From assembly GCA_964187785.1 (NCBI GenBank), contig OZ076409.1:54748001-54812000 (forward strand): 64,000 bases of DNA, in the 5' to 3' direction. Source of the DNA: Amphiscolops sp. MND2022 (lineage: Eukaryota). A model generated the notes under the pieces. That model did not search any database. It was not told where the DNA came from and saw nothing but the letters and a program-made list of their open reading frames with translations. The position numbers and the translations under genes were made by a program. Positions 15,521 through 43,500 of this stretch are shown here, piece by piece (the stretch's first letter is position 1; every line of letters begins with the position of its first letter).

Positions 15521-16565
15521 GATATGAATTATATAAAACGGCAAGCAATGAAAGGTCGCTTAACGCGCTAACAGAGGTGGAGAAACCTGCAAAGTGGTTG
15601 CATCGACCATTACAGGAGACCATCACCAAAAGTCCATTTTGACTCAGGGCGAAAGTCCAGGGTGAAAAATGTACTGAGGCCTTGACTGCTTCGACGAATA
15701 CTTACATACCAGTCCTAGTTTTTGATTGCTAATAGTAGCGGGCATCTTCCTGACTACGTTCAACTAATAAAAACAATGCCAAGAATAAGGTAAATTTCCA
15801 TTTCCAGGGTGACACGGGAACAACGAATGGACTCACAAAAAAGCCCTAGTGTTAAAAAATGCAGCGAATAACAGTGAAAAAACATCAAAGCACGCATCAA
15901 ACTACAAGCTGGGGTTCCCAGTAAACAACAAGAATCTTTAAGTGAAAAGAGTCATTTTGTCGGTTTTCACCACTTGAGGTTGCTCAATGCCAAAACTCAA
16001 TGCAAACTGGGAGTAATCAACTGAAAATGAGTCTTTTTAGCTCTCTACGAGCTCTCAAGCTATCTCAATCTCGGTGTTCTCGCTATTTCTGCTCTCGTTC
16101 ACGTTTTGCACTCAATGGCGGAACAGTGAACAGAGAAATAATCACATGCCACGTCAAACATAGATATAGAAAGTTTCACAATATTTCTGAATATGGTTCA
16201 ATTCCAAAATTGACTGAATATGTACACCAGAGGGCGCCGTTACGATATATTACAGAAAATTCGGAACATACAAAAATAAACGACACGAAACTTTAGCAGT
16301 TTTTTATCGAGAGCGTTCGTCTTTATAATCGATGTTTCGATGATTTTAGCAGAGTAGCAGGGTGTTTCAAACATTATTATCGAATATATATTTTGTTCTT
16401 CGGTAGCAAAAATACGCATGACATCTTCAGGAACACGAATTCATTGACCGTCACGATTACTGAGAGCAAGCAGCGGACGGACCAAGTCGGCGCCTCTTCA
16501 AGGCTTAGTAAGAACAAAGTGTTTTGAAAATGCAAAGGATCAAACATTGTGGAAAAATTCCTACA

Positions 16566-18503
16566 TGTCGCAGGCTGCCGCCTGTGATGGTACAAGGATC
16601 ACTACTACCGCAGAAGGACAAGAAATAGCGGCCGGAACTCTACCAATATATTAGAGGTAAACATTAAAAACACAAACTTTGCTATTATTTTTTAGTCTAC
16701 AAGTTGTACCTGTTATCGTTGCGAATTTTACACTTAGTATATAGTTTGTTGATATTAGTCCGTTAATGCCAACATTTGAAAATTCAGATGCTGTATTGAT
16801 AATTGTAAGAGCTAGAAGTGCAGTACGAACACGCTGTTATAGCAATAGATAGGCAGCTAGAAAGCGTAAAGGAAACGAGTTCAAGTGAACGTAACTCCAG
16901 TTCCGGAGACGTCACTTGAGCTCAACCTGTTAGCCAATCATATTCATCCATTTGAGTAATAGTAGTGCTGTATTTAATTAATGGCCGGTTTAGGCCATAT
17001 GCCGGAATTTCACCTTTATCTATTGGCGCTTTAGTCAAACGGCCGGTTCCGGCCTTAATGTTCAGATGAAAGAATGTTAATGCGAGCACTGTTGTGTTTC
17101 GTTTAATAGTAGTCTAATCACGTTGCTGTACTAATTAAACGTTCATCTTAGCTAATTGGCGCTTTATTTTATCCATTCCAATATTAGGCCGAATAAGGCC
17201 ATTTGCCTGACTTCTATCCTCCGTTGCTGTGACCAATTGGACAGTGGCCGGTTGAGGCCCCTTTTCAATACTATTATTCAGATGCTAATTACAATCATTT
17301 AGTGTACTTTATATGTCATGTATAATTACAAGTACGTCGTAAAGACTCATGTAACTCTTGAAATTAATTGGTGTAATCAATACCAATGTATGATGTTGCT
17401 ACCAATATTAGTCCAAAGGACATGTCTGGCCATATTTACTAGTTGACACGTGGAATCTGTGTGCATATTATATAAAGGAAAATATGTGCTGTTACATGTA
17501 ACATTGCTGTATACAAGTTGATCTAGCCTGCTAACGGGGCACGTGCCGACACGAGATTGTCAGCATTCCTGAAATATTAGCGGCGTAAACATTTTAATCG
17601 ATGCTATTTGATGTACCGTGTGCCTTTTGAATACTTGTTATAGTTGTCAAAACAGGAATTTGATCGGCCGCGTGACCTTACGATCACGATTCGGCGGCAC
17701 TTTGATGCTTGCATAGTCGAGTTAAGTCAGGTGCTTTCGGAATGTGTTTGTAACATTTTTTGGCTGTTTGCATCATGTTTATCCCGCCCAAGGAAGTATA
17801 TATAGGGGCAACTTCCTTTGGGTGGACACAATTTTGTTTTGCTCCTGATATTCAGTTGATAACACTTTCTCGTTAACAACCATCAATCCTGTTTTCCGGT
17901 TTTAATAATTTAACTATTCAACCCGGTTTAGTCTTAATGCCTACTACTAGAAAACAAAAGAAGGCAAGGAAATCTAGAGGATTAGAGATTCTCTCTGATA
18001 TTGAAAACCTTGACATAATGTTAGGTGAAAATCACTTCAAGGACATGAGGAGAGACGGAAGCCTCGATGGAACTTCCATTAAAGGCAGGAAAGTGTTACA
18101 AGCAATAACTTAGAAAATGAGGAAATGAATCTCCATTCTGATCACAGGAATCCCGAAACTGGGACTAGTGCCGGTTACGACCGAACCACAGCGAGTATAG
18201 ATTCTCAAGCTGAGATCAATAAGTTATCGTGTCAACTAAACTCTAGAATATCTAGGGAGATGGATGAGATGATGAACAGCGTTAGTTCTCAAATCCAGAG
18301 AGCCATAAGTGATGCCATCAATAACCAAGTTTTGCCACAAATTCAAAACGTTATTATGGCCGGTTCAGGACAAGAGACTAGAAGGGGATGGGAGAGATCC
18401 GACGAGAGACCGGAAAGTTATTCCGAAGTTCAGTATAACGCGAAAACTAGAACTACCTTCAATAATGAACACGGTGATAGAATACAGCGTAATGTTCATG
18501 ACA
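16566..18503 (+). repeat. 5' LTR of element B (1938 bp)
   Basis: TGTCGC...ATGACA termini; matches 30975-32911; TATA candidate at 17797-17804. Confidence 0.96.
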
Positions 18504-18515
18504 TGGTGACAGGAG
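18504..18515 (+). other. Primer-binding site TGGTGACAGGAG
   Basis: Directly follows the LTR-terminal CA and is translated within gag as (M)VTG. Confidence 0.88.
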
Positions 18516-19622
18516 ACAACGAATCTCCAAATCAAGTTCCTGAGTTTCTCACAGCACGAATCTCATCCAGAAATCATCTCGACAGGTCCTTCGAGGACAT
18601 CAACCTCGACACGACGATCCCAGCATAAGAGAGAATCGCTACGGCTGCTGACTCCGACCCCATTACCCGACTGGCAGACGTCTTGACTACAATGCAAAAT
18701 AGACCGACAGCCCAACAACTCACCATACGCCCAGTCAACTCAAATACCATGACATTCGACGGCAAAAGTGAGAAATTCGAGCTGTTCGAAGACCTATTTC
18801 ACACTATGATCAAGATGCAGCCAGAAATGACTGAGCAAATGAAGATCAATCACTTCCACTCTTTATTGAGGAAGAATGCTCTCCAGACGTTCAGAAATAT
18901 CAGCTCAAGCAACCGACAAACTCTAGAGGACGTATTAGTCATCTTTAGACGGAAATACGTCAAGCCCGAGTCACAGGCGACTGCCAAACATAAATGGCAC
19001 CGTCTAGTCTTTGATCCCAATACGATGAAACTGCCTGATTTTCTCGAAGAATTGAACCAGGGAGCCAAGAAGGCGTTTGGCGATCATGCACAGAAAATGA
19101 TTGACAGCTTGCTCTACGCAAAGCTGCCACCTAAGTTGAAACGATCTGTCAACATGGCCAGATTAGAAAATGGCTCATATGATGAAATTGTTGCTCATTT
19201 TTGGAGAGAGAGTTGGAACTCAATGCCCTTGTGGAATCAGATGACCTACCAATGGCCACAATGACCTCCTCATCTACAAAACCTAAAACTCCTCTGTCCA
19301 CAGGGCAACTGTCCGATATCACTTGCAATTATTGCAAGGAAAAGGGCCACATGGTCAAGGACTGCGAAAAACTGAAAAAGAAAAAAGAAAAAGATGCCCA
19401 ACAAGGCAAGTCGACACAGAAGAAAACATATCCGGAGTGTGGCACTTGTGGGAAAAAGAACCACCCGGAGGAGAGATGTTGGCAAGGTGCTGGTGCACAT
19501 CTTAAACCCAAACGCACTAGACCTGATGACTCAACTGAAAAAAAGCCCAATCCAAAGGCTCAGAAACCTCAGACCAAACCGACATCATCGAGTTCCCAAT
19601 CCTCATATCCTAATGATGAGTC

Positions 19623-19632
19623 AAAAAACTAA
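19623..19632 (+). other. Putative -1 ribosomal frameshift site A AAA AAC followed by the gag stop
   Basis: Canonical X XXY YYZ heptamer at the gag/pol junction. The same AAAAAAC-TAG occurs in element C (~51098-51107, minus). Confidence 0.75.
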
Positions 19633-22600
19633 CTTCGCCACGACTCCAATATAACGAATTAATATCTGTCCGACAATACATCAGATCGGACCCTCCAACG
19701 ATACAATCCTTCCACCAATACAATCAGCAATTGATGGGCTATCCCTCTGTTGTCTGGCAGCAGCAGATGGAAAAAGCTACCATCATCACCTACAATAACA
19801 CCCATTTATTCCAGAAACCAATTCCTGTTTGGGACCCTGATTACACCACTACCTTCACCACCCGCTTCAGGCACATTCCCCTAATCGATGATTACAACCC
19901 AACATACATCGATCCAGACTACGGCAGAGATCCCTATTGGGACACCGAGCTTTACAACCAAGATTCACTGCAATTTCAATATGTCCTGGACGATTTTGAC
20001 TATTATAACAGAACAGTCCACGAGAACCCCCCAATTACCCATAACAAGAAAACACGAGCACTAATCGAAAACTGGCAAATGAATGATGGTACAAACCACC
20101 CAGTGTTCCCAAACCCATTGGGGACCGAGAACCCTGAAAACAGTGTTGAATCCACGCCACAATCATTATTAGATGAAAAACAATTCCAAAATGTACTCAT
20201 CACCAGAGATGGTGAACCAGACTGTATACCCCTGTCAACCAACATCAACCTCAAATGCAAGAAACGCATGCTTTAATTCCCAATGGACTTTGGGGAATTG
20301 ACCATTGATGGATTAATAGACACTGGAGCACTGTCCAGTGCAATCCCTGAAATGGACTTCCGGAAAATCCGCCTTCTATCTCCACAATCTGTTATCCGAG
20401 AAGGTCCGCCTCCGAACTTCCAAATCATGGTCGCTAATGGGCAACTGGAAACTCCTAAGAGTACCATCGAGCTCAAATTCGAAGTTGGTGACATTGAGTT
20501 CCATGAAATCTTTATAGTAATGGAACATTTGACAGGACCAATCATTGGACTAATGTTCCTTCAGAGAAATCATACAGTGCTGGACATGAGACAAGGGATA
20601 CTGAATTTCCCGTTCTTTTCAATGCAGCTCAAAACGGCTGACCATAAGTATTCAAATGTATTAGAACCAATTCTCAACCCTATTGAGATAACAATTCCAC
20701 CAAATGATAAAGTCCTAATTAGGACCAATTCCCTACTCTACCCCGAGAATGCTGTCACTGGAATTTTGCAACCGGGCGACCTTCTACACGAAGAAGGCGA
20801 CATCACATTTTGCCCAGCTTTAGTAACTCTGAATGACGGCAATATATTAATACCAGTGAACAATTTCACAGACCACCCTTATAAACTCAAAAAGGGACTT
20901 CATATTGCCAATTTCTCTGTCATGACACCAGAACAGATGAAGTATGTCAAATTGGTAGATCCGGCATCAACCTGGCACCTGTTGCAGAATGACCAGGAGC
21001 AAGCAGCCCATTACGTCAGCAGTCTCATCAAGACCAATAGAAACCCGCAAAACTCTGAAAATTATTGGATCCCAACTCCAGAAAATCCTGGAAATCCTGA
21101 GGAACACACACCTATACAAAAACGAATCCTACGCGAGTTACAGGCCCTACAGGACCTGGAGACACTCGATCCCACTACAAATGCAGAATCGCGTGCAAAA
21201 TTCTTAGAAAACTTTGACTGGAAAGATTCCACCCTTACTCCTGAAGAGAAGGAGAAAATTGAGGAATTGTTAGTGGAATTCCATGACATCTTTGCACGAC
21301 ACCGATTTGATATAGGCATGAATGAAGAATTCAAGGTGAAACTGACGCCTAAAGACGATTCCCCAGCCTATAGTCAAAGCCTTCCAGCTCCTATCAACTT
21401 GAAGGAGGACATCCTAGTTGAATTAGCCATGTTACATAAATATGGCATAATAACCACACTGCCATTCTCGAAATATGCAAGTCCAATATTCGCACAGAAG
21501 AAACCGAACGGGAAACTCCGACTCTTGGTTGACTTGAGAAAAATCAACAACCTCATCTCAGATGATTATATCAACAACAATCATCTCGTCAGTACACTAG
21601 TTGATGCAGCCCAACACTTGGCAGGCAAAAAACTGTTCTGTAAATTAGACTGTTCGCAGGCATACCACTGCCTACCAATGGCCGACCAACGATCAATCGA
21701 AATGTTGGCTTTCAATTTTGCCAGTCGCACATTCGCTTACCGACGCTTGGCACAAGGCCTTAGTCGGTCACTATCCGCATTCTCGAGTTTCATGAGGGAA
21801 TACCTCGACAAAGTCATTAAAGCGGATCAGTGTGCCCAGTATGTGGACGATATCGGCATCGCAGCCAATGATGTCGACCACCTCATGACGAACCTGAGAG
21901 CCACGTTCAAATGCATTCAGGAAGCAGGCCTTAAGTTGACAATGCACAAATGTCACTTCGGTGCAAAAGAAATTGTTTTCTCGGACGGACTATTACCCCA
22001 CAAGGCGTCAAACCTCAGAAACAGAACGTGCAAAACTTTCTGGAAAAGACCAAATTCCCGAAGTCGAAAAAGGCTTTACAGCGCTATTTGGGATTCCTAA
22101 ACTATTACAGGAATTATGTCCCAAGACTCTCCGAACGCCTTGCTCCATTCTACAAGATGCTCAAAAGTGACGAAAAGGTCCTAGTATCGAAAGAATTAGT
22201 CCAACAATTCGAAGAAATCAATAGAGCACTAGACAAATGTTGCGACCTGGCCCTACAACAACCCATTCCGAACAAACAAATAGCACTAATGACTGATGCA
22301 AGTTTTGGTGCAGCCGGGTACGCGGTCCTAATTGAAGACGACCCAAGTCAGAAATTTACATCACTCAGAAAATCGTATGCACCGGTCGCATATGGATCAA
22401 AAATTTTCACCCCAGCACAGATCAAGATGTCAATTTATGCCAAGGAATTCCTTGCAATTTATTTTGCATTCAAAGAATTCGGACATATCTTCTGGGGTGC
22501 GCCGAAACCGGTCATCATCCTTACGGACAACAAAGCCGTCACGAGATTTTTCCAAACGAAAATAATACCCCAGCCCTGTGGAACGCGTGTGATTATTTCA

Positions 22601-24836
22601 TTCAGTTCAATTTTGTCATAGCACACATCCCAGGGGCACAAAATACAGCCGCCGACTATTTGTCCCGATTGGAAGCAGATCCAAAGGACAAATTGGTGAT
22701 GAAAATTCGTGAAGATGTACAAACACTACCAATCGAAATCAACGTCCAATCCGCAGGTGTGACGCAAGAAGAACAAATCTTCTACACCAATGACGACGAC
22801 GAGACAGAGGAACAGTATTGGGCAAGAAAAGAAGCAATTAGGAAAAATCCAACAACTGATGAGCCCACTGTTACTATACAAACTCTATCAACAACTCTGG
22901 TCAAGCAACACCCCGATATACAAGTCCGATTGAGGAGAACGAACCAGATCATTATCGAGCAATCCAAGGATGCGGTACTACAACAATTGAAAGCAAAACT
23001 GCTTCATGAAGAGTATTCAGAAAATCTACTACACCAGGATGCCCGATATAGACATTACGCAAACAATCTGGAACGAATTGTACTAAAGGACGAAATCCTG
23101 ACAAGGCAATATTTCGATGAAACAGGGAATGTTAAATACCATCAAATTCTACTCCCGCAACATTTACTCCAGGAATTGCTCCAATCCCTTCACGGGACAG
23201 CGCATAAACATCCTGGGACTTCAAAAATGCTGCAGGAAATTCGACAGAGGTATTACTACCCTAACATGGCTAAACACGTCAAAAAGTGGGTAGAAGGGTG
23301 CGAACAATGTGCCAGAGACAAAAGAGTCCCTAACGCAACGATCACACCTGAGCTGCTCAACTTGCCCGAATGGGACCTCGGACCTGAAGACGCCATGCAA
23401 ATAGACCTATTGCCGAATCTTCCCCCAAGTGATGGGTATGAAAACGTCTTAACAGCAATTGATGTATTCTCCCGATATTTGTTCGCCTATCCCCTTACGG
23501 ACACATCAGCGATCAATGTAGCAAAAGCGCTCATTGACATCATGACTAAACACTCATATCTACCAACGACTCTTATCACTGATAAAGGTACTGCATTTAC
23601 TTCTACAATTATTGGGGAGGTTACGCAGATTTTGGGCATCACACTCAAATGTGCAACGACAAAACACCCGCAGACAATTGGGAAATTGGAGCGAACCCAT
23701 GCCTCATTGAAAACAAATCTCAAAATGGCATGTGGGGAATATCGCCGACAGTGGCACAAATACTTGCCATTAGCAGTACTGAATCATAATACTAGTTATC
23801 ACGCCAGCATCGGTTGTGAACCGACGAGAGTATTCCATGGAAGAATTCCATTTAATATCTTGGATCACAAACTTGGAAATAATCCAAATGAGCAGATCAA
23901 CCCCACAACCGAATTTGCTGAAGAAATCCAAAACCGGACGAAAATCCTAATTGACAAAACGAAGCAGAACATTATGCAGTCGTATATCAAGTACAAAGAA
24001 TATTACGACCGCAAAGCAAAAGCTGCTCCATTGAAGGAGAATGATTACTGTTTCGTCTTACAGCCGAAAGCGGATCATCAGGGATCAAAAATTCCATTCC
24101 GCGATTACCGTTGGGTTGGACCATTTGTAGTCCAAAAAGTTTTGCCAAATGAAAACTATATAGTACGACGGATCAATACGAACAAAACTCAAATTTTGCA
24201 TCGCATTCGCCTTAAGAAGTTCGTCCCCAATCAACCGCTTGAAGATAATTTCCGAGAACAACGTCTGCAGCCAGACGAAGAAATTGTCATTCCGCAAGAT
24301 GACCTATACGTCATAGCGTGGGAAACAGATTTTGGCGAGCAGCTAGGTACACGAGACAACGAGCCTATTCCGACTAGCGTGCCGAATGGCGAACAACCGA
24401 ATGCGGCACAACCGAATACAAGTGACGCACACGAGAATGAAGTGGATTATGTAATCACGAGTGATGAATCAAATCTTGCCGATCGTGCGTCGCATAACCG
24501 GAATGAACGATTAATTGATGACGTCACTACAAGAAATGAAGCTAGTGAACAGTCTAGAAATGAAGAACCTGATTGGCCGAATCCGGCCATTTCCCCAAAA
24601 AGCCATGAAAAATCTTTGCCGGATACGGCAGACAGCCTACAAGACAAAGAAATTTTACCCGATGAAAATTTTAGAACTGAAATCGATGCACAAAATTCTC
24701 CGAAAAGGGGGATGATATTATCGTGCCCGAAATATCTGAAAACGATGCTAGAAATGAAAGTCTGAGCCTTAGAGGAGGGAAATATAACCTCAGACCTAAC
24801 CCTAACCCAAACTACTCAGAAGACTTCAGATACTAA
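19633..24836 (+). pseudogene. pol: pol of element B (PR-RT-RNaseH-IN), a few disruptions
   Basis: LIDTGA; QYVDDIG; MTDASF/LTDNK; LHGTAHKHPG..CEQC; QIDLL/TDKG/LERTH; C-terminus KYNLRPNPNPNYSEDFRY*. Confidence 0.95.
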
Positions 24837-25066
24837 GGATTGAATTTTCCCGGAAATGGGAGTTCTTTTCTTTTATCTTTGTTTTAAGCCCCTCTGAGAA
24901 TTTCTTTGAATAAATACTGGGGCATTTCAAAGGATCCCATACAAAAAGAGAATAAATATGGGATCAAGGCAACGAAGAAACAAAATCAAGAGCAAATGAG
25001 AAAACAAAACAATGAAAGAAATGAACAAAGTTTACAGTCTGAAAGTACATAAATACATATGTACAT

Positions 25067-28000
25067 TTAGTCTTTAGAGGACCCTTGAACGGCTTTCTTG
25101 GATGCAGACGAAATTGTAGAACTGCTGCTACCTGCTCGCTTCCTCTGCTTCTTGGAAGGCACCTTTATAGCTGAATCATCAGGGATGGACGAGGCAGTAT
25201 CCTTTTCTATCCGGACAGAACGAGTAGAAGGAACAGCAGTAACGGCCTTATAGGAAGTGAGAAGACTCTTGAGATCTTAGACCTACCAAACTCATCCACA
25301 AGGGTCCACGGATCGTAGTCAGCAGAGAAAGCAGAACGCTCGGAAGAGGAACTGAGAACTGAGAACTTCTCCAAATTGACATCCGAGCAGCAATGGGAAA
25401 TGGAATTGGGCACACAGGAAAGGTAACTCTGGCAAGGCACCACTAGATCGGCAAACGGCCCTGACACCCCGTTGTGTCAACACTCCCGAACAGTACTGGG
25501 GGATATTGGGGGCTAACACTAGTCAGACACAAGCAGCAGAGTTTGAACAGATAGAACAAGTGCTCATGAGTTTGGAAAAACTCAAGCCCCATTAAAAAGT
25601 CTATAAGATCGACGGAATTCTCCATCAGATCGAAATCTGGAGGATAGTTGACTCGGAGGTAGTCCAACAGGGCCAGATATTCGTCTCGACAACTGTTCTC
25701 GTTGGCGCTAGTGACCCATGATCGAAGCTGGAAAGTAGAATATAGCACATCGAAGTGCCGGAGCCCGACCTCAGAAGGCCTTTTGAAAAGCACGAAGGGA
25801 TCAAAAGCAGCCAACCCCTTTATCACTTCAGAGCTCAGACCAGCTTGACTAAGGACTTGTTTGACTAGATATTGAATGAATTGCAACGCCTCTTTGACAA
25901 AGCTGCTGGTCGTTTCTGCAGCCGTCTTCTCGATACGGCCTTCTCCGATTTCTTGTTCAGGTGTGTGACTTCTGCACTCTGTTTACTAGCTGTAGCTATC
26001 CGGTTTGTGAGACGGTGCCGGATAAGGAAGTCTTCCTCACTCATGAATTTGCCCTCGCTCACCTTAAACCCGAGAAGGAGGAACCACGAGTTCTCGAGGG
26101 GAATGATTTCTGGCAAATAACATCGGGCGCACAGTTTTGAAACAAAGCGGCAAACCTCCCCACAGAGGAAGAACGACGCATCACGGCGGCCCTGCAGATT
26201 GATGGCGAAACTGGTAACGTCTGAAATACAACAGTCGTGATTATGAGAGGAATAGGATATACAAACGAGACAATGTTGATAGTGATTCAACAACTCAAGG
26301 ACCTAAATTATCGGAACGACGTCTTAGTGCACTGACGTGGAATGAAACCGTATACTCACAATCGCTAATTATACGTTGGAAGAATTCCAATTTAGCGACG
26401 AAGAAGAAGTCACAGATGATGGACCACTCGAAGCTTTGGACCTGATTGTGGACTCCTTGCATTCCTTGGTGAGGGGTGTGCGTAGTCAAGTACTGTCTGA
26501 TTGCCTTCCAATTCTTCACAAGTTCTCGGCAAAGACTGGGGAGGCTTGACAAATCTAGTTTTCAGGTGTCGATGGCCTTAAATGAACCAAATTGTCTCTC
26601 AACTGCACCTACCTTCAAACCTCTAACTACATGAGTGAACTCAATATACTTACTCTTCCCAGATCAGGAGATTCCAGAACCCAGTCCTCACCAGTAGCAG
26701 CTCCCAATGAAACGATCAGGCACTTTAGGACAGAGAAAAAGTCGATCCGTCCAAACACGCTGTAGGTGGGCTTGTGCATCATCTTCTGAAGCTGCAGCTG
26801 CTCAAAACGAAAGCAACTCTGTACTGCTCGGGGAAAGAACTCATTGTGATCTATGGTTTGGATCAACTCTACCGGACATCCCGAACAGGCGACGATATCG
26901 GCTTTGGTTGAAACCACAAATAGTAGTCTGGATATCGAACCCAAGTCTCCAGTCAGATCAGCGGAGGGAAGCCCACATCGGCACACAAAGACGCGACAAA
27001 GAGAATCGCCTTTCCAGAACTTGATAGACATGAGCCTGTTCACGCCCACATTCTCAAATTCGATAGCGAAGCATTGGGTGGTAGCAATTTGCTCTGCTAA
27101 TTCACTCATGGCACAATTGAAAATGTGTTGGATTATGGTCTAAAGAAGAAAAAGACAATTATGAAATGTGTAGGGAATCTATACCCTCCCTGAGTAAATG
27201 TTAGCCTGAAAGGGAACCTACCGAAATTCGTTCTTCCCCCAGTCAAAGTCGCAGTAACTGGTTTGATAGTTCGTCAGAGATCCTATCTGAGCCCATAGTC
27301 TGCGGAGTACTCCAAGATCACCGTGAGTTTGCACGAAGTCTCCAATGAGGTGTATTTGTGTCTTGGCCCTCGACGCAGGAGTGACGAGTGTGGTTGACGT
27401 CCCTTTCACGAAGTCGTCGTAGAATGGGAAGCGTTCTCCGATGTCTATTAGTTCGACGTGTATAAATTTGGGGAGTTCTTTCGCCAGCTCAATCTTGGTG
27501 AGGATCTTGCCGTTCCGCCCTCTGACCCGATGCTGCACTTTCCCAGTCACTGGATCAACGCTTTTGAGGTGTTCATAGCGCCGCCTTTGATCACGTCTGA
27601 GGTGTTTCTCAGTTCTGTGGTGACGCAGGATCTCCAGTGTACCCTTGGTCTTCACAGAAATATTCTTCTTACATACATGGCACCACACCATATAAGGATT
27701 GTGAAGGGGATCAGCTGGCCCGGAGATGAACGATCGGGTCCAGCCAATTTTGGAGAAGAATTCCTCCTTCATGGGAATGCCCCGTGTATGGCCGCGCCGT
27801 TTCTTCTTGGGCAATTTGCCTGAACTCGAAACTAGAGGTTGTGCTGGGGCCGTCTGGGTACGTCATTCGGAGAGCGTGGCGTCGAGACTGGATTGATCAG
27901 TGGACTCAAAACCTGCTTGGGTAGGGTCAGCTCGAGAAGGTGGAACGCGGCTGAAAGGTTCCTTGAAAGCCTGTGAGATGACTGCCATCTCACCAGAACT

Positions 28001-29227
28001 GTCAGTTTCGTTGAAAGATTCTAACCCTCTACTTTCTTGGCCAGCACTGGATCCTTCAGAGGTGTCAGTCCCTGATCCAGAACAGTATTCAGCCCGCGAA
28101 CTATCTTCCGAATCACTTTGCAGCCCTGGGCCGGGAGTTTGAGCCCTTGGTCGGATCTTGAAGTGGTCAGTTCGGGCACTGGAAGTGACGGGGGCCCCCC
28201 TAACCGCTCCGATTACCATCTGCTCCATGGTGGAGTAGGACATCTTCAAGGTCTCGTCTGTAAGGACCCTTAGGAGATGATAGATTTGTGGCTCCGTGAA
28301 CGCCACAGTTCTATGACCGAGCGGGAAGGTGATAGTGCTGGCATCATCATCGAAATACTGTTTCAAAACGGCCCTACTACGGCCGGAAAGCTCCCTGATC
28401 TTGGGGTCCTGAGCTGCTGAAGTGGAAGGACGCATGGAATCAGGAATTGCAGCGAAAGTATCAGTTGATGACCCTTCTCCTGCTGTGTCTGCTACGTTAC
28501 CTATTGGCAGGTAGGCGTACAATTGAGGAGCACTAGCCTGGCTAGATGTGTCACCGGCTTCTTCGGTTCCAGTCTCATCGCCCAACCACCTGACTTTTGG
28601 TGTTCCTGTTGGCAGCTTGGGGACATCACATAGGGAAGAGCTTTCGTCCGTTTCAACCTGGAGAAATGAGGCTGCGGACATTTCGGCAGGAGTCACGTTA
28701 GTGGGCAACAATTCCGGTAATATAGTCCTCGAGGAAGGAGCAATCGTTAGTCCAGTCTCTAACTGAGTCAAATTGAGCTCGTCGGTCTCACCGGCTACGC
28801 CTGGGGTAGGGGTACTAGTACGAAAGAGCGGCGTAGTAACCTGTGCCTCGATCCCCGTGGAAGAAGGACCCTCAGTTATACCTCTCCCGGTCTCTTGTTC
28901 TCCTCTCTCAGGGTTCTCCGCAGTATGTCCCTCTGATTGCTGTTGGGCCTGTTCGAGGAGCTGAAGCTTTTCGTCGGCATAAGATGTTACGTCGACGTTG
29001 CTGTCTGTACTGCTGGGAGACCTTGGTGGCTTTATTGGAGGAAAAGGAGGAGGAGACAATTGTGATCCACGGACGGTGGAGGACGTACCCACAGAAACAA
29101 TCGTTTGTGTATGTTGGTCGAGAATGTCCGCTGCAGAGTTGGTTTGTGTTTGCGGTTCGTCTCCTGGCTGGTTTGCTAAACAAAAGGAGATGAAATTTGG
29201 CGGTGAGCTTCCTTGGAAAAAATCCAT
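25067..29227 (-). pseudogene. Antisense 4-exon gene of element B: BED-finger, inactivated hAT-transposase-like protein (~1290 aa reconstructed)
   Basis: Exons 29227-27222, 27139-26654, 26576-26360, 26220-25067. Donors GTAGGT/GTAAGT/GTGAGT. Finger WCHVCKKNISV..GTLEILRHHRTEKH. Collinear with C 40523-44447. Premature stops at 27863 and ~26563. Confidence 0.8.
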
Positions 29228-30277
29228 TTTACCGCATTAGAAAACTTCCGGAAGTGTTTGAAAATCTGAACGAAACGTGTTATCACGCGTTTACTAATGG
29301 AAACAGGAAGCATATTGTGAACGGATTTAACCCTGATCAAGTTAGATTTAGTTCAAAAATAAAACAAACCAACCTTCAGACGAAGACATTCTGGGGCAAG
29401 ACTGATTGTAGGGAATGAGTCCTTGTTCGGCTGTAATGGATAAGGGAACTTGGCCGAGTCCGGCTGAAGAAGGAGATCCGGGATATTCCAAAGAGAAGAG
29501 CTGACGGAAGAAGAGCTGGACGTACAAGGATGAATCTCAGTTGGAAGAATACAAATAAAAGAAACAAATGTAGAGTAATCAGAAAAGGAATTGGATTGGA
29601 ATTTTAATGTAAAAGAATTGAAGAGTTGGAGTTCGTGGCTGAAGAATATTACCAGACTAATATTATGGATTATCTACATATTTATTCTGTACATGGAGTC
29701 TGCCAGCGAAGTGTACAAAGAACTTTATTATTTACAGCTTATTTAGTTAGAGGCCGGTTATGGCCGTTTACCCTGTTTTGTTTTGCCGTTTTGTCCAGTT
29801 ACCCTAGTTACCCTTAGCTAGAATTTTCGCCATCTTGAATTATTTGGATTTATTAGTTTCGCCATTTTTATTATTTAATTTTACAACTTATCGAAGCTTA
29901 ACGCTGATTGGCTGAAGTCATTTTGAAGGAATTCCGCGTCGCGTGTCGTTAATTGCTATCAGGCAAACCGTTAATTACCCACTTGAAACGGATGAAGATA
30001 ATATTTACAACTCAAGCGTCATTAACACCTCTCAGAGTGATGGTGCTGATGGGGGGTAAACACTGAGTTATCAAAGGATGCCGACTAATTATAAAATTCC
30101 ATTCAGGAATGTTTACGTCGGATCAGGGCGATTTACCGATAACTCGACCGCCAAAAACGAATTGCCGGGAAAAGGCCCGAGTCGACTAAATTTTTGAGTT
30201 GGTAAATTCATTCCACTTTGAAATCTCACTCAAGCTAGTTAACTTTCCCAATCAGCAAAATTGCCAAGAAACTCATA
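29228..30277. promoter_or_regulatory. Putative internal divergent promoter of element B
   Basis: Non-coding spacer between head-to-head ORFs, with sequence conserved in C 39495-40520. Contains ATTGG boxes and GGCC-N6-GGCC. Confidence 0.5.
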
Positions 30278-31063
30278 ATGCAGAGGTATAACCTATCTAA
30301 AAAGCTCTTTGATCTTGAAGAAGACTCAGAAAGTTCAGTAGATTCAGTTATCTACATCTCAAGTGACAGTGAGAATGAAGTCTCAAGTTCCTGGGACTCA
30401 GACTGGTCCACGGATACAGAAGAGATCATAGAAAGAATAGAACGAGAGGTGAAAGCTGCTCCAATCCCTATAGCGAGACGCGGGATGACGACGGAAAATT
30501 TAGAAGACGAGATGACAGCTGGACCAAGCAGTGCATGGCATGTTCCGCCCTCTACCCCTAAACTAGGATTCGAGTATTTTAACAAGGAAATGTGCTTGGC
30601 CCCATCGAAAAAACAAAGAAAATCAAAAGTCGAGCTCTGTGCAACTGTATTACCCGTTCTGGAGTCCCCACAGTCTCCTCCTGACCATGAAAGAGGACCG
30701 AGCATTGACACCCCTCTTGCGCAGTCAACCTCTGGATCTTTCTATGCGTCCTATCATGTGCAAAATATCGAGCCTTACCAGGATGTGAGCCAAAATTTGC
30801 ACACAGGCTGTATGGTATGTGGCAAGTCGAGAGATCAAATAAAAGCAGAAAAGGTGAACTGGTACATGCAAAGATCGACACCTAGCAGTGAGCCCGCTTA
30901 TATTACCGCCCTACGACGAGAGGCTTATGAAAATGGCTTGAACGCAGGAAGCTTACTTTTCCTAACACCCGCAGTGTCGCAGGCTGCCGCCTGTGATGGT
31001 ACAAGGATCACTACTACCGCAGAAGGACAAGAAATAGCGGCCGGAACTCTACCAATATATTAG
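30278..31063 (+). CDS. Sense accessory protein of element B (261 aa; acidic N-terminus, SIM-like VIYISSDSE, CxxC)
   Basis: Intact ATG ORF, clearly homologous to C 38700-39490. The last ~29 codons lie in the 3' LTR. No env-like transmembrane segment is visible. Confidence 0.8.
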   Translation: MQRYNLSKKLFDLEEDSESSVDSVIYISSDSENEVSSSWDSDWSTDTEEIIERIEREVKAAPIPIARRGMTTENLEDEMTAGPSSAWHVPPSTPKLGFEYFNKEMCLAPSKKQRKSKVELCATVLPVLESPQSPPDHERGPSIDTPLAQSTSGSFYASYHVQNIEPYQDVSQNLHTGCMVCGKSRDQIKAEKVNWYMQRSTPSSEPAYITALRREAYENGLNAGSLLFLTPAVSQAAACDGTRITTTAEGQEIAAGTLPIY

Positions 31064-32911
31064 AGGTAAACATTAAAAACACAAACTTTGCTATTATTTT
31101 TTAGTCTACAAGTTGTACCTGTTATCGTTGCGAATTTTACACTTAGTATATAGTTTGTTGATATTAGTCCGTTAATGCCAACATTTGAAAATTCAGATGC
31201 TGTATTGATAATTGTAAGAGCTAGAAGTGCAGTATGAACACGCTGTTATAGCAATAGATAGGCAGCTAGAAAGCGTAAAGGAAACGAGTTCAAGTGAACG
31301 TAACTCCAGTTCCGGAGACGTCACTTGAGCTCAACCTGTTAGCCAATCATATTCATCCATTTGAGTAATAGTAGTGCTGTATTTATTTAATGGCCGGTTT
31401 AGGCCATATGCCGGAATTTCACCTTTATCTATTGGCGCTTTAGTCAAACGGCCGGTTCCGGCCTTAATGTTCAGATGAAAGAATGTTAATGCGAGCACTG
31501 TTGTGTTTCGTTTAATAGTAGTCTAATCACGTTGCTGTACTAATTAAACGTTCATCTTAGCTAATTGGCGCTTTATTTTATCCATTCCAATATTAGGCCG
31601 AATAAGGCCATTTGCCTGACTTCTATTCTCCGTTGCTGTGACCAATTGGACAGTGGCCGGTTGAGGCCCCTTTTCAATACTATTATTCAGATGCTAATTA
31701 CAATCATTTAGTGTACTTTAAATGTCATGTATAATTACAAGTACGTCGTAAAGACTCATGTAACTCTTGAAATTAATTGGTGTAATCAATACCAATGTAT
31801 GATGTTGCTACCAATATTAGTCCAAAGGACATGTCTGGCCATATTTACTAGTTGACACGTGGAATCTGTGTGCATATTATATAAAGGAAAATATGTGCTG
31901 TTACATGTAACATTGCTGTATACAAGTTGATCTAGCCTGCTAACGGGGCACGTGCCGACACGAGATTGTCAGCATTCCTGAAATATTAGCGGCGTAAACA
32001 TTTTAATCGATGCTATTTGATGTACCGTGTGCCTTTTGAATACTTGTTATAGTTGTCAAAACAGGAATTTGATCGGCCGCGTGACCTTACGATCACGATT
32101 CGGCGGCACTTTGATGCTTGCATAGTCGAGTTAAGTCAGGTGCTTTCGGAATGTGTTTGTAACATTTTTTGGCTGTTTGCATCATGTTTATCCCGCCCAA
32201 GGAAGTATATAGGGGCAACTTCCTTTGGGTGGACACAATTTTGTTTTGCTCCTGATATTCAGTTAATAACACTTTCTCGTTAACAACCATCAATCCTGTT
32301 TTCCGGTTTTAATAATTTAACTTTTCAACCCGGTTTAGTCTTAATGCCTACTACTAGAAAACAAAAGAAGGCAAGGAAATCTAGAGGATTAGAGATTCTC
32401 TCTGATATTGAAAACCTTGACATAATGTTAGGTGAAAATCACTTCAATGACATGAGGAGAGACGAAAGCCTCGATGGAACTTCCATTAGAAGGCAGGAAA
32501 GTGTTACAAGCAATAACTTAGAAAATGAGGAAATGAATCTCCATTCTGATCACAGGAATCCCGAAACTGGGACTAGTGCCGGTTACGACCGAACCACAGC
32601 GAGTATAGATTCTCAAGCTGAGATCAATAAGTTATCGTGTGAACTAAACTCTAGAATATCTAGGGAGATGGATGAGATGATGAACAGCGTTAGTTCTCAA
32701 ATCCAGAGAGCCATAAGTGATGCCTTCAATAACCAAGTTTTGCCACAAACTCAAAACGTTATTATGGCCGGTTCAGGACAAGAGACTAGAAGGGGATGGG
32801 AGAGATCCGACGAGAGACCGGAAAGTTATTCCGAAGTTCAGTATAACGCGAAAACTAGAACTACCTTCAATAATGAACACGGTGATAGAATACAGCGTAA
32901 TGTTCATGACA
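30975..32911 (+). repeat. 3' LTR of element B (1937 bp)
   Basis: Matches the 5' LTR with few differences and is followed by TSD CTACA. Confidence 0.96.
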
Positions 32912-32919
32912 CTACATAA
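32344..32919 (+). CDS. LTR-encoded Gag N-terminal ORF (191 aa) in the 3' LTR
   Basis: Uninterrupted copy of the first 189 gag codons, stopping 8 nt into flanking DNA. Expression unknown. Confidence 0.55.
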   Translation: MPTTRKQKKARKSRGLEILSDIENLDIMLGENHFNDMRRDESLDGTSIRRQESVTSNNLENEEMNLHSDHRNPETGTSAGYDRTTASIDSQAEINKLSCELNSRISREMDEMMNSVSSQIQRAISDAFNNQVLPQTQNVIMAGSGQETRRGWERSDERPESYSEVQYNAKTRTTFNNEHGDRIQRNVHDTT

Positions 32920-35900: not shown

Positions 35901-36714
35901 AGTACGCTATAGCAAGGTAACAATTAATTTGCATGAAAGACGTCACTTTTGATTGATTTACGTTCTAATGAGCACAGACACAGGGAAAATATCGCCAACA
36001 GACCTGAATTGTTCATTCTAACAACTTTCAATCTGCAGATATTGAACAGTTTACGCCGGTATGAACTCCAAGCAAGTTCAGAAAGATTGTAAGGATGCTT
36101 AGGAACAGCGAAGGTCAAAAAACTACGGTGAAAAATAAAGTCAAAAATGGCAACAACGAAAGAACATCTTGGGCTCTTGGGCACTAATTACAAACTAGAA
36201 TTGAGTATTGATTGTCACACTCTCAATTCGATGATCTGAACTCAGTTTCAGTTGCTACGGGATTTTGAGACTTCATTTCCGATGTGTACTTGGTTTCTGA
36301 AATGCCATTTCGGGCATTTGAGCAAAACAATAGGAAAAGTTTCAAAAACGTCAAGTAATTTAGAGTTTAGGACCGTAAATTTAGAACCATAACACGAAAA
36401 ATTCGAGTGTTTCAGGACTTGAATGAAATTGGCAGGTTTTGATACGTTTGTTGAAATTTATAGAACTAACTAAATTTGAACACAACTAAGTGTTGAAGAT
36501 ACCAAAGAACCTTTGAAAACGAATCAACGAAAACTCGTCGAAAAGCAACTCGTCGAAAATTCTCCGGCGGAAAACTTGTCGCAACAATAGAAAATTATCT
36601 CAGGCAAGTATGGTTCTAACTTTGTTATCACACCGTGTTGAGAAGTTCTAAATTATTATGAAGTATTACACTGTAAACTGTAAAAATGAAATATTTCAAG
36701 CAATTATATAACTA

Positions 36715-37080
36715 AACAAGACGAGAACGTCTAAAGTCGGCGCTATATCTAAGGCTCGAAAAAAGCAAAACATTCTTTTTGGAAAAAAACTTGAAATTTT
36801 CGAAAATGTTTCTCTTTCGGAAAATGTCGCACAGTGCCGAAAAATGTGAAAAGGGGGACCCTTTTTGATTTATAAACATGCATTCTGTTGCAAAATAACA
36901 AAAAAACTCAAAACCCCTTTGGGACATTAAAAAATTTTTTTTAAAAAAATCGCACAATGCCGAAAAAAAATCAAAACGGGGGACCCTTTAGTCTCGGCCG
37001 GTTTTGTAGGTTACGATAAAAATGGACTAACTGAAAGGGGGGACCCTTTGCACTATCTTAAATGCGCTGCCAGTATTTTA
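36715..37080 (-). repeat. Dispersed non-coding repeat family copy
   Basis: Reverse complement of the motifs at 15127-15520 and 61836-62287. Confidence 0.7.
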
Positions 37081-37085
37081 GTAGT

Positions 37086-38788
37086 TGTCGTAAGCACGGA
37101 ATTCTGTATCTCTGTCACAAAGACGGTCATGATTTCGCTTACTTGTTAAGTTATCTCTGGAACATGCGTTCCGCAGAACTTCAGGATTAACTTCTGGTCT
37201 CTCAGACGGAACGTTCCATCTGTTTTGTGTGGAATGTCCCGATCCGGTATTTAAGGCAGATTGAATTTGGGGCAATATTTGACTACTAATTGCATCACTA
37301 ATTGCCCTTTGGATCTGGGTATTGACACTACTCATCATTTCATCCAATTCCCTAGGCAATCTCGAGTTCAGTACACTGGACAGTCTATTGATCTCTGCAC
37401 TAGAGTTACCTCCTGTTGAGTATTGGTCAAAATCGGCATTATTACTAGGATCAACATTTCTCGACTCTGAGTACCTGTTTTCCTCATTATTTTCGAATTC
37501 ATTTCCAAATGTATTTTCAGGCATCCCGGCCCGATTACTACTAAGACTTTCATCCCTTTCATTTCTATTAAAGTGGTTTTCTCCAAGCATGATATCTAGA
37601 TTCTCAGTAGATAGTAGGCATCAAGATAGAAAGTAGTAGGCATAGATAGAAAGTAGGCATCAAGAATTCAAAGGTTGAATATTGTATTGGTGGTCTAGGT
37701 ATGCAATCTATAAGAGCGTAACAAACTGAGTTTGAATAAGTGGAAAGATTATTGTGTCTTCCTCTCGGAAGGGGTGAATATTTATACTTCCAAGAGAATG
37801 ACATTCACATTCTTTAGATAATATTTCAACAATTTACAAATTCCTTAAAGTCACGAGACTAAGGCAAAACACTAATGGGTACATATCCGTCAGCGGTTAC
37901 CACTTCATCAAAGGGACTCAGGAATTTGTTCATGTTAGGGTCACGAGGAAATTACCTCCATTTTATAAATAGCAGCGTTGTTTATAGAAATAACACTTCA
38001 ATGGAATTTAGGTCGGCAACAAACATCAAACAAATAACAAATCACACCTATTCTAGGAATGTAAACTACTACATGTTAGCACGTGCCTACGTCTGTTGGC
38101 AAATACAATAAGTAGGTAGCTCCAATGCATGTAATATTACATGGAACAACATAGCCTAAACCGACCATTTGACATTAAGTCATTCATCATTAAAGGCTCA
38201 ATTAGTCCCAAAGACTTTTACTTGAGACATCACTGTTATTTAATGTTAATTGTATAGATTAACACCAAAAAAGTTCATGACCAACTCCAGATATTAATAT
38301 GTACTTACATGGCACTCAATCATGTAAATACCACAATCACAACAATTTATGTAGGGAATTAGAGAAACGGCCTATTTTGGCCATTTGATTAAAAGCAAGT
38401 ACTACAGCATAGAATGGGTGAGTGTGATTGACTAATAGAATGAGCTCAAGCGACGTCTCCAGAATAGGAGTTGCGTTCACTTGCACTCGTATCCGTTAAA
38501 CTGCATAGCAGCCTGTATTCACTTTCAATTGCTTTGAACAATTACTGCATTGCAAATTATTGCACTGCTTATTCAATTCGCCTCTTTGGATGTAATTATT
38601 AACAGACTAATAACAAACTTTTCATGATGAATTGGTATTATAACAACGTATAAAAGAAAACAAGTCAGTTTTTGTCTAAGTTTCTAATGGGACCTAACTT
38701 TAGTAAGTTGGTAGGGTACCGGGCACAAATTCCTGACCAACCGCAGACGTAGTCACTGTTGTGCCATCACAGGCTGCAGCCTGCGACA
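37086..38788 (-). repeat. 3' LTR of element C
   Basis: Minus strand TGTCGCAGGCTG...TACGACA (5-bp terminal inverted repeat). Contains the Gag-N ORF (MLGENHF..., 37590-37078). Boundaries inferred by homology to B. Confidence 0.82.
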
Positions 38789-39490
38789 CAGCGGGTGTAA
38801 TGAAAAGAAAGCAGCTTGCGGTGAGTTCATTCTCACACGCCTCCCTTCTGAGTCTTGTGACGATTCGGGCTCATTTTGTCGGGTGGATCGTCGCATGTAC
38901 CACTCCACTTTCTCGTTCTTGATTGCGTCCACTGAGCGACCGCAGATCATACAGCCAGTGTAAGGTATTTCACTGACGTTCTGGTAGGGCATCGTGTTCT
39001 GTACATGATAGGACGCAAGAAATTCCACTCGCGTTGTTTGGGTTTGTGGGGTATCCAATGAAGGCCCTTTCTCATGTTGCGGTAGTGACATGGGCGAATC
39101 AAGAACAGGCAAAAGCGTCTTGCATATTTCGATCTTAGACTTCCCATTTTGTCTGGGAGGAGCGTACCACATTTCCTTATCGAAGTATTTGAGCCCCAGT
39201 TTACTGGCTGGCGTGACTTCTTCGTGGAGATTACTTGTGCTTGGACCAGGTAACATGTCCCCTTGCTCCACTTCTACTGTCATGATCCTTCCTCCGATCA
39301 GCATGGGACTTGAGCAGACTTCTCCCTCAATGCGAGCAACTAGCTCTTCCGTATCGGTGGAACAGTCCGTTTCCCAGCCATCTGAAAGTTCGTCTTCGAT
39401 GCTTGAGAAGTATATAACTGATTTGTCTGAAGCCTCAGAACTGTTGTCATCTAGGTCGAAAAGTTTTCTCGCGAGTGTTGAATTTTTTTA
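38700..39490 (-). pseudogene. Sense accessory ORF of element C
   Basis: RKLFDL..SVIYFSS..WETDCSTDTEE, CMICGRS and GTLPTY* match B 30278-31063. Frameshifted near the 3' end. Confidence 0.8.
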
Positions 39491-40522: not shown

Positions 40523-43500
40523 ATGGACTCGTTTCAAGGAAGCATACCGCCAGATTTCATCTCTTCTTGTTTAGAGAGACCAGAACCCGAATGCCAAACA
40601 GCACCAAACCATTCTGAGTCTGCAGACCTTAACACTGTCACCGGACTAATTTCCGACGCACAGGCCCACGACAGAGTCACACCATCGCCCCAAAGTACCA
40701 GCAGTGAACCGGATGTCAACCTCTTTGCTGAGGACATAGTACGCCAAATAGAAATTTGACAACAGAAGACTGTTGCAGAACTCGATTCCACTTGCACCCC
40801 AAATTCAGAAGAAACTCCGCAGGTCGTACAACGGTCCAGCACCCCTGTTCCTGGTAGTTACGGGCAAGAAACCGAGGCTAGCCTCACCCAGTTAGAGACT
40901 GGACTCAGAGTTGCGACTTCTTCTCGCACTCTTCCCGAGCTTCTAACTACGGCTCTTTCGGATCATGAGGCAGCTGAATTGTCAAATTTACAGACTGAAG
41001 ACAACAACGTTTCTTCATTGTGTGAGTTTCCATCATTGCCTAATTTTGAGCCAAAAGTCCGATTCCTGACTGATATGAGCGAGAGTGAGAATACTGCGGA
41101 GGAAGGGAGCCTCGTCGATTGTCCTACCCTTTATGGCCGTAATCCTTTGAGATCTGAGTCAGGTACTGAAGCTGGTGATGAGACAGACATCAATTGCACT
41201 CCAACAATCCGCGACATGCCCTCTACTTCCTCGGGTTATGTCCTTGGGGACAATGTTCCTGATCTGTCCGGACGATGCAGGGCAATTCTGGAGAATTACT
41301 TCCAAGAATCTGACGCCTTCAATCTACCCCAGGGGCATCCAGTAGTTGCCTTCACTGAACCCCAAGTGTACCATTTGTTGAGAGTCCTGAATGATGAAAC
41401 ACTCAAAAAATTGTTCGACACCGTGGAACGTATGGTTATTGAAGCTGTGAAGGGGAAAACTTCAACAACCCCGTCTAGAACCTCCCACTTCCAGACCAAA
41501 AGGCGAGCACAAACCCCAGAGCGCTGGATTCATTCAGACTCCAAACAGGAAACGTCTGGGCACTCAGGTGCTGCCAGTGCATCTGGTTCCGAGGACTTGG
41601 GCGACACTTCATACGATGGAGAGACTGACAGCGCAACGGAGATGGCTTTGATCTCTAACACCTTCAAGCCAATGTCAGAAATCAATCAGGAACATCCAAC
41701 CACCGAGGAACCGAATCCCGAACAGGCTACTGAACACAGCAGTCAGGATGCAACCCTCCTGGAATTACAGCAGTCGGCAAGGAATGCAAAAACCCCAAGA
41801 CCCTCCATGGAGAAACGCTCAAAGGCGGTCAAGAGACCTAGTCGAAGAAAGGCACCTATGCGGGAGGAGTTTTTCTCCAAAATTCGGTGGACCAGTTCTT
41901 TCATTTCCGGTCCAGTTGACCCTATCCACAATCCACATATGGTCTGGTGCCATATGTGCAAGAAGAATTTTTCAATTCGAAACAGGGTCCCGTTGAGATT
42001 CTGCGCCACCATAGGACCGAGAAACATCTGAGAAGCGACCAGCGGTGGAGGTACGAGCACCTCAGGAGTACTGATCAGCCACCGGTAAGGTCCAACACCG
42101 CGTCCGGGGTCGAAATGGGAAGATTTTAATTAAATTAGAACTAGCGAAAGAACTTTCGAAATTTATCAACACGGAACTCATGGAAGTAGGGGAGAGATTC
42201 CTTTTCTACGACGACTTTATCCAAGGGCGGACCGTTGCCTTGATTACACCGGAGTCTCGGGCTCGGACCCAATTGAGGATTGTCGCTGAATTTCTCGAAA
42301 CTCAGAGCGATTTCTCTATCCTTCGAAATCTTTGGGCCAGATTAAGTACCTTAACTGATCACCACGCCAGCCTCTGCGTTTTTGATTGGGGCGAAGAACA
42401 CATGACGGTAAGATCTGATTTCTTGTTTAAATTCCTAATCTTGTTTACAGTGCCATGTTTGTGAATGGTTCGTGACACCTGATTGTTTCATTCCAGGCCA
42501 TCCGCCAGCACTTCTTTGATAGTGCTATGTCAGACATTGCCGAGCATGTTGCCGCAGAGCAGTGTTTCGTTTTGGAATTCGAGGAAAGAGGGCTTAATCG
42601 TTTCATGTCAGTTCGATTTTGGAAGGATCAGCACCTTTGCGAGTTGCCTGCCACAGGACTGACAGGTGATTTGGGATCACTGTCCCGGCTACTTTCCCTC
42701 ACTTCCACCAAAATAGACGTAGTCGCATGTTCTGGAGGCCCTGCTGACTTGATCCGGACGATTAATCAGTCTCCCAACTTCACGCGGAGTACACAAGCAG
42801 TTCGTTTCGAGCAGTTGGACTTGCCTCATTTATTGAATAAGATGAGTTACAGTGTCTTCGGGCACATAGAATTATTCTCTGTGTTGCGGGGGCTGTTAAT
42901 TTCGCTCGGCGGATCGCAAACAGAGGACTGGGTCTTGAGGAGTCCTGAACAGGCCAAAGTAAGTGTTCCCTCAATTCATCTCAATGAAATAGGGCAAACG
43001 TTAAGAGGAACTCCCTTTAGATCTTCACATCTTTGTGGCATTGACCATGTGTTTGTAGTCAACGGATTAATGGATTGATTTGCCCAATTGTAATATTTGT
43101 GAGACTTCAGGCCATCGCAAAATGCAAGTTGGATCTCTTGACATTGCCAGCCCTCTGTCAAGAGCTGATAGATGAATGGAAGTCTGTTACTTCATACCTA
43201 ACTCTACACGCCCCATACCAGCAAGGACAAGGAGTCAGAACCAGGGTAGGTAACCTCATTAGGAATACCATCTTTAGAATATAATATCACTCAGCAAGCA
43301 CTACCACGGATAATGTCACCCGTTAAGGCCGCCAGCTAAGGATCAGTGTATGTGTTTCAGGTGCAGAGTTTCGAATGGGGGCTCAAATGCGATGAGTTCT
43401 TCTTGGTCAAGTTAGAACTCTTCTACCATCTTGTCAGTGACTGCAAGTATAGGTTCATTTGTCCAGGGTTTCGTCCAAGACTCCCGTTAGGGCTATGTTT

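Follow-up and report, generated by a model that had tools for sequence, protein, structure and literature searches.

How does an LTR retrotransposon start its plus strand when coding sequence, and not a polypurine tract (PPT), abuts its 3' LTR? To our knowledge, a PPT is regarded as obligatory for LTR elements, and it serves as a filter in annotation tools. The question is raised by a 64,000-nt stretch of Amphiscolops sp. MND2022 DNA (assembly GCA_964187785.1, contig OZ076409.1, positions 54,748,001 to 54,812,000, forward strand), which we refer to as the window. It contains elements whose 3' LTRs appeared, in an initial annotation of the letters, to lack this feature.

The window holds four related Ty3/gypsy copies, named A to D, with LTRs of up to 2.3 kb. 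Pfam domains in A and B follow the order DUF1759 Gag, protease (PR), reverse transcriptase (RT), RNase H and integrase, and the best PDB match of pol is Ty3 Gag-Pol (E 4.5e-13). On domain order and this match, the copies are therefore Ty3/gypsy elements, a superfamily placement that is read from the predicted pol and the element ends. The nearest named match is a 412-like Pol (RWS06308.1) at 31% identity. B and C are 81.5% identical over pol, and B and A 64-68% in alignable stretches. The gag-pol of every copy in the window is interrupted by stops or frameshifts. Copy B (16566-32911, plus strand) is complete in outline. Its LTRs of 1938 and 1937 bp (16566-18503 and 30975-32911) have TG...CA ends and are identical at 1925 of 1936 aligned bases (99%), and CTACA on both flanks forms a 5-bp target-site duplication (TSD), a feature assessed for B and D. 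The earlier claim that B integrated normally is borne out by its matching LTRs, its TG...CA ends, its exact left end and the CTACA on either side. D, too, has an exact left end and an intact TSD. The copies are made up of the following features.

1 to 1959, minus strand: 3' LTR of A, extending beyond the window
12783 to 15126, minus strand: 5' LTR of A (15126-12795, 2332 bp) with a putative primer-binding site (12794-12783)
16561 to 16565, plus strand: left TSD of B, CTACA, the same five bases as at 32912-32916
16566 to 18503, plus strand: 5' LTR of B, TG...CA, 1938 bp, with the gag start inside it at 17937
17937 to 24765, plus strand: gag-pol of B (DUF1759 Gag, PR, RT, RNase H, integrase), with stops and frameshifts
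18504 to 18515, plus strand: putative primer-binding site of B, starting TGG, abutting the CA of the LTR and lying inside gag
30975 to 32911, plus strand: 3' LTR of B, 1937 bp
32912 to 32916, plus strand: right TSD of B, CTACA
37086 to 38788, minus strand: 3' LTR of C, 1703 bp, with a hairpin as in B
45978 to 51291, minus strand: gag-pol of C, 81.5% identical to B over pol, ending within gag, 5' LTR absent
52869 to 54090, plus strand: solo LTR D, TSD GCATG, containing an assembly gap

The gap in D is a run of N at 53593-53792, which makes its length of 1222 unreliable. The region after pol in copy C (43153-45847) carries internal duplications of 640 and 586 bp that are 97-99% identical. One AT-rich host repeat matches the outer flanks of A and C (15127-15460 and 36713-37055) and occurs again at 61831-62289; target preference or nesting are possible explanations. 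Searches for Rfam families and tRNAs gave no match in the window.

Both LTR ends sit within coding sequence, gag at the 5' LTR and an accessory ORF at the 3' LTR. Gag reads from inside the LTR (17937 in B) through the putative primer-binding site. Its start lies 400-570 nt inside the LTR (17937-18515, plus strand, in B; 13239-12783, minus strand, in A), and the R-U5 region and minus-strand strong-stop DNA would therefore be unusually long. Directly after the LTR's CA, A and B carry an identical 12 nt that starts with TGG (two matches, 0.02 expected), and the final A of the LTR together with the TG of the primer-binding site makes an in-frame ATG in both. The gag-side third of the A, B and C LTRs contains no AATAAA. 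Four acidic residues, D-E-D-D, can be read in the A and B translations along with Pfam RT_RNaseH, and we take them to be the RNase H catalytic motif. With these residues present, the predicted RNase H of A and B looks ordinary.

The internal/3' LTR junction of B reads CTTTTCCTAACACCCGCAG at 30956-30974, and the LTR begins with TG at 30975. The junctions of C and A are on the minus strand, at 38807-38789 with the LTR beginning at 38788, and at 1975-1960 with the LTR beginning at 1959. Five features meet at these sites.

30278 to 31063, plus strand: accessory ORF of B, 261 aa, spanning the internal/3' LTR junction and stopping 89 nt into the LTR
30956 to 30961, plus strand: pyrimidine box of B (U-box-like) at -19 to -14, at equal distance in A, B and C
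30962 to 30974, plus strand: 13 nt of B at the PPT position, 6 of 13 purines, a putative plus-strand primer
38789 to 38807, minus strand: pyrimidine box and purine-poor 13 nt (5 of 13) of C
1960 to 1978, minus strand: pyrimidine box and 13 nt of A, with 8 purines in the first 10, degenerate and PPT-like

Of the final 13 nt before the 3' LTR, 6 are purines in B, 5 in C and 8 in A. Over the 30 nt that precede the LTR, uninterrupted purines extend for at most 6 nt in B, where the stretch stops 23 nt short of the LTR, for 5 nt in A and for 3 nt in C (in a window 2 nt off). These comparisons cover the internal junction DNA of three copies, of which B and C are closely related (81.5% in pol). The absence of a PPT, first reported for all three, holds for B and C with their 6 and 5 purines in 13 nt; for A it is doubtful, as 8 purines fall within positions -13 to -4. 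Every sequence originally quoted is present at the junctions of B, C and A, and all three junctions do lie inside a sense accessory ORF, which is intact in B (30278-31063) and frameshifted upstream in C and A. Matching C-terminal peptides are encoded by C, A and D in the same register to the LTR's TG.

Further junction DNA was sought in several collections. A metagenome scan with the accessory alignment confirmed 0 of 47 stretches, and searches of genome contigs and viral contigs gave no match. An RT search of metagenomes found 17 loci of 1.0-5.9 kb, which are shorter than the 9 kb between RT and LTR in B. Six of the loci were translated. The longest contig, of 5.9 kb, carries at L002:591-5537 the pol of a distant relative (58% in RT), uninterrupted over 1649 residues; no LTR was recognised in the 326 nt after it.

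The accessory protein family bears on whether a purine tract could be encoded at the junction at all. A search with the B protein gave 197 homologous clusters; the best 120 of these 197, all from ENA, and the query form a set of 121 proteins. Some clusters among the listed homologues have more than 100 member sequences. The junction peptide is found in 100 of the 121, and the other 21 are mostly shortened or frameshifted. When every codon choice was tried over the 13 nt preceding TG, the longest possible purine run was 2 nt in 93 proteins, 3 in five and 4 in two, and the purine maximum in those 13 nt was at most 9 in any of the 100. The conserved peptide before the LTR is F-[ILV]-[TA]-P-A, and a purine tract cannot be encoded in 100/100. 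PAVSQAAACD is the most conserved 10-residue window of the protein (0.95 across 84 near-full-length members). Since the peptide forbids a purine tract, intact B-branch members would therefore lack a PPT if they share the LTR start codon, which is the same in B, C and D. The case in which intact copies have a normal PPT, named at the outset as the one that would count against the proposal, is not seen in this family, as the junction peptide is unable to encode one in any of the 100. These data indicate that the PPT, as judged from the encoded peptide, is missing family-wide in the B/C branch and not through decay.

We also examined the A branch, using the ORF piece of A as query. The search gave 104 proteins, with the junction in frame in 80. 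Five further A-branch ORFs are chimeras whose breakpoint with unrelated sequence coincides with the junction codon, the codon that includes the TG of the LTR as two of its bases. Because the chimeras break at this codon, the LTR start is confirmed across the A branch. The residues upstream of the junction are variable. In the commonest form (34 of 80), up to 10-11 of the 13 nt can be purines. Three frameshifted members, when read in the second frame, show that this form indeed has 8 or 9 purines in 10 nt, ending three bases before TG. By the lengths and distances given in the accessible text of PMC2790888, that tract would pass as a short PPT. Seven of the 80 proteins, one of them perhaps out of register, permit a purine run of 3 at most, and they include a cluster of 161 member sequences. 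As predicted from these proteins, the lineage would range from a short degenerate purine tract to none.

The junction is constrained at the nucleotide level. Synonymous codons of B and C are identical at 12 of 15 sites at the junction (-22 to +28), whereas the rest of the ORF has 42 identical among 119 (Fisher p 0.001, for a window picked after inspection of the alignment). The 30-nt windows of highest identity, with 28 of 30 bases shared by B and C against an ORF mean of 63%, straddle the junction. Synonymous sites are conserved across the junction, so a cis-element overlaps the accessory ORF. The constraint spans -19 to +28 and extends to the internal side of the junction, where integrase does not need it.

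All three copies A, B and C have six pyrimidines at -19 to -14, followed by 13 nt. Codons made up entirely of pyrimidines are possible at -19 to -14 in 98 of the 100 B-branch proteins and in 66 of the 80 from the A branch, counts that are not independent because the proteins are related, and a full box is impossible in the other 14 of the 80. The box codons (L-F, F-P and L-L) are inherited together, and they may be kept for the protein. Located 14-19 nt upstream of the LTR, the pyrimidine box appears to be a better-conserved candidate signal than the hairpin that was noted at the LTR start. The initial annotation had quoted these letters but passed over them.

30976 to 30997, plus strand: predicted 9-bp stem-loop at the LTR start of B, its 5' arm doubling as the LTR terminal motif

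A conserved hairpin here could itself be the main signal for the RNase H cut or the plus-strand start. Consistent with this reading, seven core pairs of the stem are predicted at p 0.98-1.00 in a 300-nt context in B and C, and seven pairs at 0.70-0.97 in D (151 nt). Equal stability is reached by 7 of 2601 natural 30-nt windows across ORF and LTR in B and by 7 of 2375 in C, a control that is lenient because the LTR is AT-rich and overlapping windows were counted. Among 200 shuffles, 5 fold as well as B, 9 as well as C (window 2 nt off), 54 as well as D and 121 as well as A. The first 25 LTR columns include 21 that are invariant across B, C and D, although the D LTR has no blastn match to any of the other LTRs. 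The only hairpin difference between B and C falls in the loop.

The same alignment also speaks against the stem-loop as a signal. Of nine pairs in B, C and D, seven are invariant, one has a one-sided change, one is broken in D and none has changed on both sides. First and second codon positions fix six of the nine, and the 5' arm doubles as the terminal motif that has to be recognised by integrase. The A branch varies in the 3'-arm codon (G 35, A 27, D 14 of 80) while its 5' arm is nearly invariant, and the stem is absent from the predicted fold of A in 300-nt context (z = +0.41). The hairpin had been described for all four copies; it is predicted in B, C and D, but in A it is not, where 121/200 shuffles do as well. 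The reported G-T to G-C change in D is present (G-U to G-C in RNA), but another G-C pair, unmentioned before, is lost there. A junction-spanning hairpin spotted by eye in A was rejected as well: it is neither the predicted fold nor common to B or C. We conclude that for one branch the stem exists in silico, that its role as a signal is unproven, and that it is unlikely to be the main signal. The proposal of non-canonical plus-strand priming, perhaps structure-defined, thus survives in part. Non-canonical priming is supported for the B/C branch by a peptide that forbids a PPT and by constrained synonymous sites. Structure-defined priming is not shown, with 0/9 pairs changed on both sides in three sequences, codon-fixed pairs and an A branch without the stem.

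How, then, might the plus strand start? We give an even chance to a reading in which the B/C branch primes from a purine-poor RNA of about 13 nt, placed by the upstream pyrimidine box. The element's own RNase H would cut this fragment of about 13 nt from conserved coding sequence, at the junction. The pyrimidine box would fix the position of the cut, in the manner of the U-box known from retroviruses, Ty1 and Tf1, and the hairpin may help by letting RNA on the 3' side of the cut refold and come off the template. The double duty of the site, which codes for accessory protein as well, would have eroded the purine tract. RNA/DNA hybrids rich in pyrimidines would not be expected to withstand RNase H.

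Several features of known systems bear on this proposal. According to the accessible text of PMC2790888, PPTs in Drosophila are 8-22 bp long with a median of 13, and some have a U-box. A TCTT or T-box upstream of the primer is described for fission-yeast elements, Ty1 and retroviruses in the accessible part of 10.1101/2022.12.06.519325. For Ty3 RT, the available portion of PMC5371799 reports two active sites about 13 bp apart, an HIV primer that is not recognised, and RNase H cleavage that a weakened pair redirects 10-12 bp downstream. Against a cut placed by the box, the U residues of the B box lie 15-18 nt before the junction versus 10-12 bp in the same account of Ty3, and the box-to-junction spacing matches the Ty3 distance roughly only. 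A broader version of the proposal, which we find somewhat unlikely, would have geometry and not purines define the plus-strand start: a box one RT footprint upstream would set the cut, the hairpin would clear the template, and the sister branch would keep intermediate stages.

Sites farther upstream could supply a primer instead, and the element carries further genes between pol and the junction.

23663 to 23673, plus strand: within the integrase of B, 11 nt identical to those that abut the 3' LTR, a weak candidate for a central primer
25443 to 29236, minus strand: fragmented antisense gene, located between pol and the accessory ORF and containing a zinc-finger-like stretch

The 11-nt copy, which 17 of 1773 control positions equal, hints weakly at a possible central primer site. 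It overlaps the conserved integrase motif K-H-P/A-Q, and C retains an 8-nt core and A none. Close to where pol ends, B (24702-24712, plus strand) and C (46042-46031, minus strand) each have a PPT-like stretch of As followed by Gs, about 6 kb ahead of the 3' LTR. This is where an element without the extra genes would carry its PPT; no such run was seen at the matching place in A.

The antisense gene has counterparts in the window at 40760-44343 and 4883-6607 (both plus strand). It has a C2H2-like zinc finger below the Pfam cut-off and an intron-like GT...AG break near 27140-27220; four longer relatives exist, and the predicted model has a mean pLDDT of only 34.5. By eye, we take it to resemble a hAT transposase. 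Its product might conceivably be a nuclease that forms the LTR end. The accessory proteins of A and B do not align (BLASTP E 0.24, HHalign probability 0.9%), and neither has a family in Pfam or the ESM Atlas. Those of both branches start with a hydrophobic core that leads into serine and acidic residues (VIYISSDSE and LIDISSSSEEE), which presumably resemble SUMO-interacting motifs, and TPPGTP in the A-branch protein is, we assume, like an Fbw7 phosphodegron. A role of the accessory proteins in regulating the host is possible.

If plus strands started upstream, at purine-rich or central sites, integrase would have to trim a long extension at the terminal motif. The internal copy in the B integrase and the A/G runs near the pol end of B (24702) and C (46042) would fit such a start, and the LTR opens with a long conserved sequence that could serve as an extended recognition site. 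HIV PPT mutants likewise extend the U3 end or use the central PPT, as stated in the accessible part of PMC13332604. The same part of that source reports that extended ends reduce processing by HIV integrase, yet this family includes clusters of more than 100 sequences. The shrinkage of the internal copy to 8 nt in C and its absence from A, its position on an integrase motif, and the conservation on the internal side of the junction, which this explanation leaves unaccounted for, make an upstream start improbable in our view. We are equally doubtful that nothing special is encoded, with a tolerant RT, an ordinary short PPT in the A branch, and conservation and hairpin as by-products of the protein and the integrase motif. 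The 34 of 80 A-branch proteins that fit 10-11 purines in 13 nt agree with this explanation. So does the literature in its accessible parts: PPTs have no common consensus and allow pyrimidines (PMC3185511), of 713 Drosophila candidates, an annotation tool assigned a PPT to just 340 (PMC2790888), and every RT is fitted to its own primer (PMC5371799). The exceptions given in the accessible text of PMC3185511 are, however, single pyrimidines in a purine tract and not 7-8 in 13 nt. Moreover, synonymous positions are constrained, and the tract is absent family-wide, which is not decay.

A primer acting in trans, either a small RNA or the end of another transcript of the element annealing to minus-strand DNA at the junction, is highly improbable. 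Internal sense and antisense genes do imply additional transcripts, and the fixed nucleotides upstream of the junction would suit a pairing partner. However, the junction has no terminal CCA, which excludes a tRNA 3' end, the elements hold no long direct or complementary match except the weak internal copy, and Rfam has no match in the window. Other candidates were rejected outright. An antisense RNA as template would need signals that the other strand lacks, as it has no TGG primer site or purine tract at the matching ends. Splicing of an upstream tract onto the LTR was dropped because an AG occurs at the junction in B alone, a tRNA as plus-strand primer because CCA is missing at the junction, and a hepadnavirus-like primer jump from the transcript start because direct repeats of the junction in the LTRs do not exceed 9 nt.

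A box-placed, purine-poor primer would set the B/C branch apart from known systems in several respects. In HIV, nef overlaps the PPT and U3, so that a primer site lies within an accessory gene that ends in U3, and the nef codons retain a perfect purine tract. The primer site is here also inside an accessory gene, but the B-branch peptide forbids a purine tract. These elements are like Ty3 in the order PR-RT-RNase H-integrase, in TG...CA LTRs, in a 5-bp TSD and in a putative primer-binding site that starts with TGG. They differ from Ty3 in LTRs that measure 1.7-2.3 kb and start and end within ORFs, and in carrying both an accessory ORF in sense orientation and a gene in antisense. The Ty3 primer is 12 nt and all purine in the accessible text of PMC5371799, whereas the B/C branch has 5-6 purines in 13 nt. 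By pol and ends the element is Ty3/gypsy, but the B/C branch, as far as its sequence predicts, fails the PPT feature of the canonical scheme.

The U-box or T-box of SIV/HIV, Ty1 and Tf1-like elements places pyrimidines one primer length upstream of the LTR, as is the case here (10.1101/2022.12.06.519325, PMC13332604 and PMC2790888, each in its accessible part). In those systems, as these parts describe them, a purine tract follows the box; B and C have kept the box but lost the tract. HIV-1 3'PPT mutants provide a second comparison, drawn from the available text of PMC13332604. Without the purine tract, priming there is abolished and replication moves to unintegrated 1-LTR circles; replication without a functional 3' purine tract is possible in HIV-1 too. 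The mutants using these circles have low fitness, whereas members of this family are integrated, with exact ends and TSDs. Plant Retand elements (Tat) likewise have a long pol-to-3' LTR region with antisense ORFs, and carry TRP28 (PF04195) according to the accessible part of PMC11963269; in the present elements a sense ORF runs into the LTR. Neither PF04195 nor any other Pfam family matches the antisense region above cut-off. PMC3587641 gives ordinary putative PPTs only. Our literature search, in which coverage of subscription journals was incomplete, found no PPT-less LTR family, and automated annotation often misses PPTs.

How RT chooses a PPT is an open question, and loss of the PPT in HIV stops integration. 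A natural, precisely integrated family without a PPT, beside a sister branch with a degenerate tract, would show that purine content is dispensable. The two branches would form a graded series for testing what RNase H reads. If this is true, the loss of a purine tract would be traceable inside one genome.
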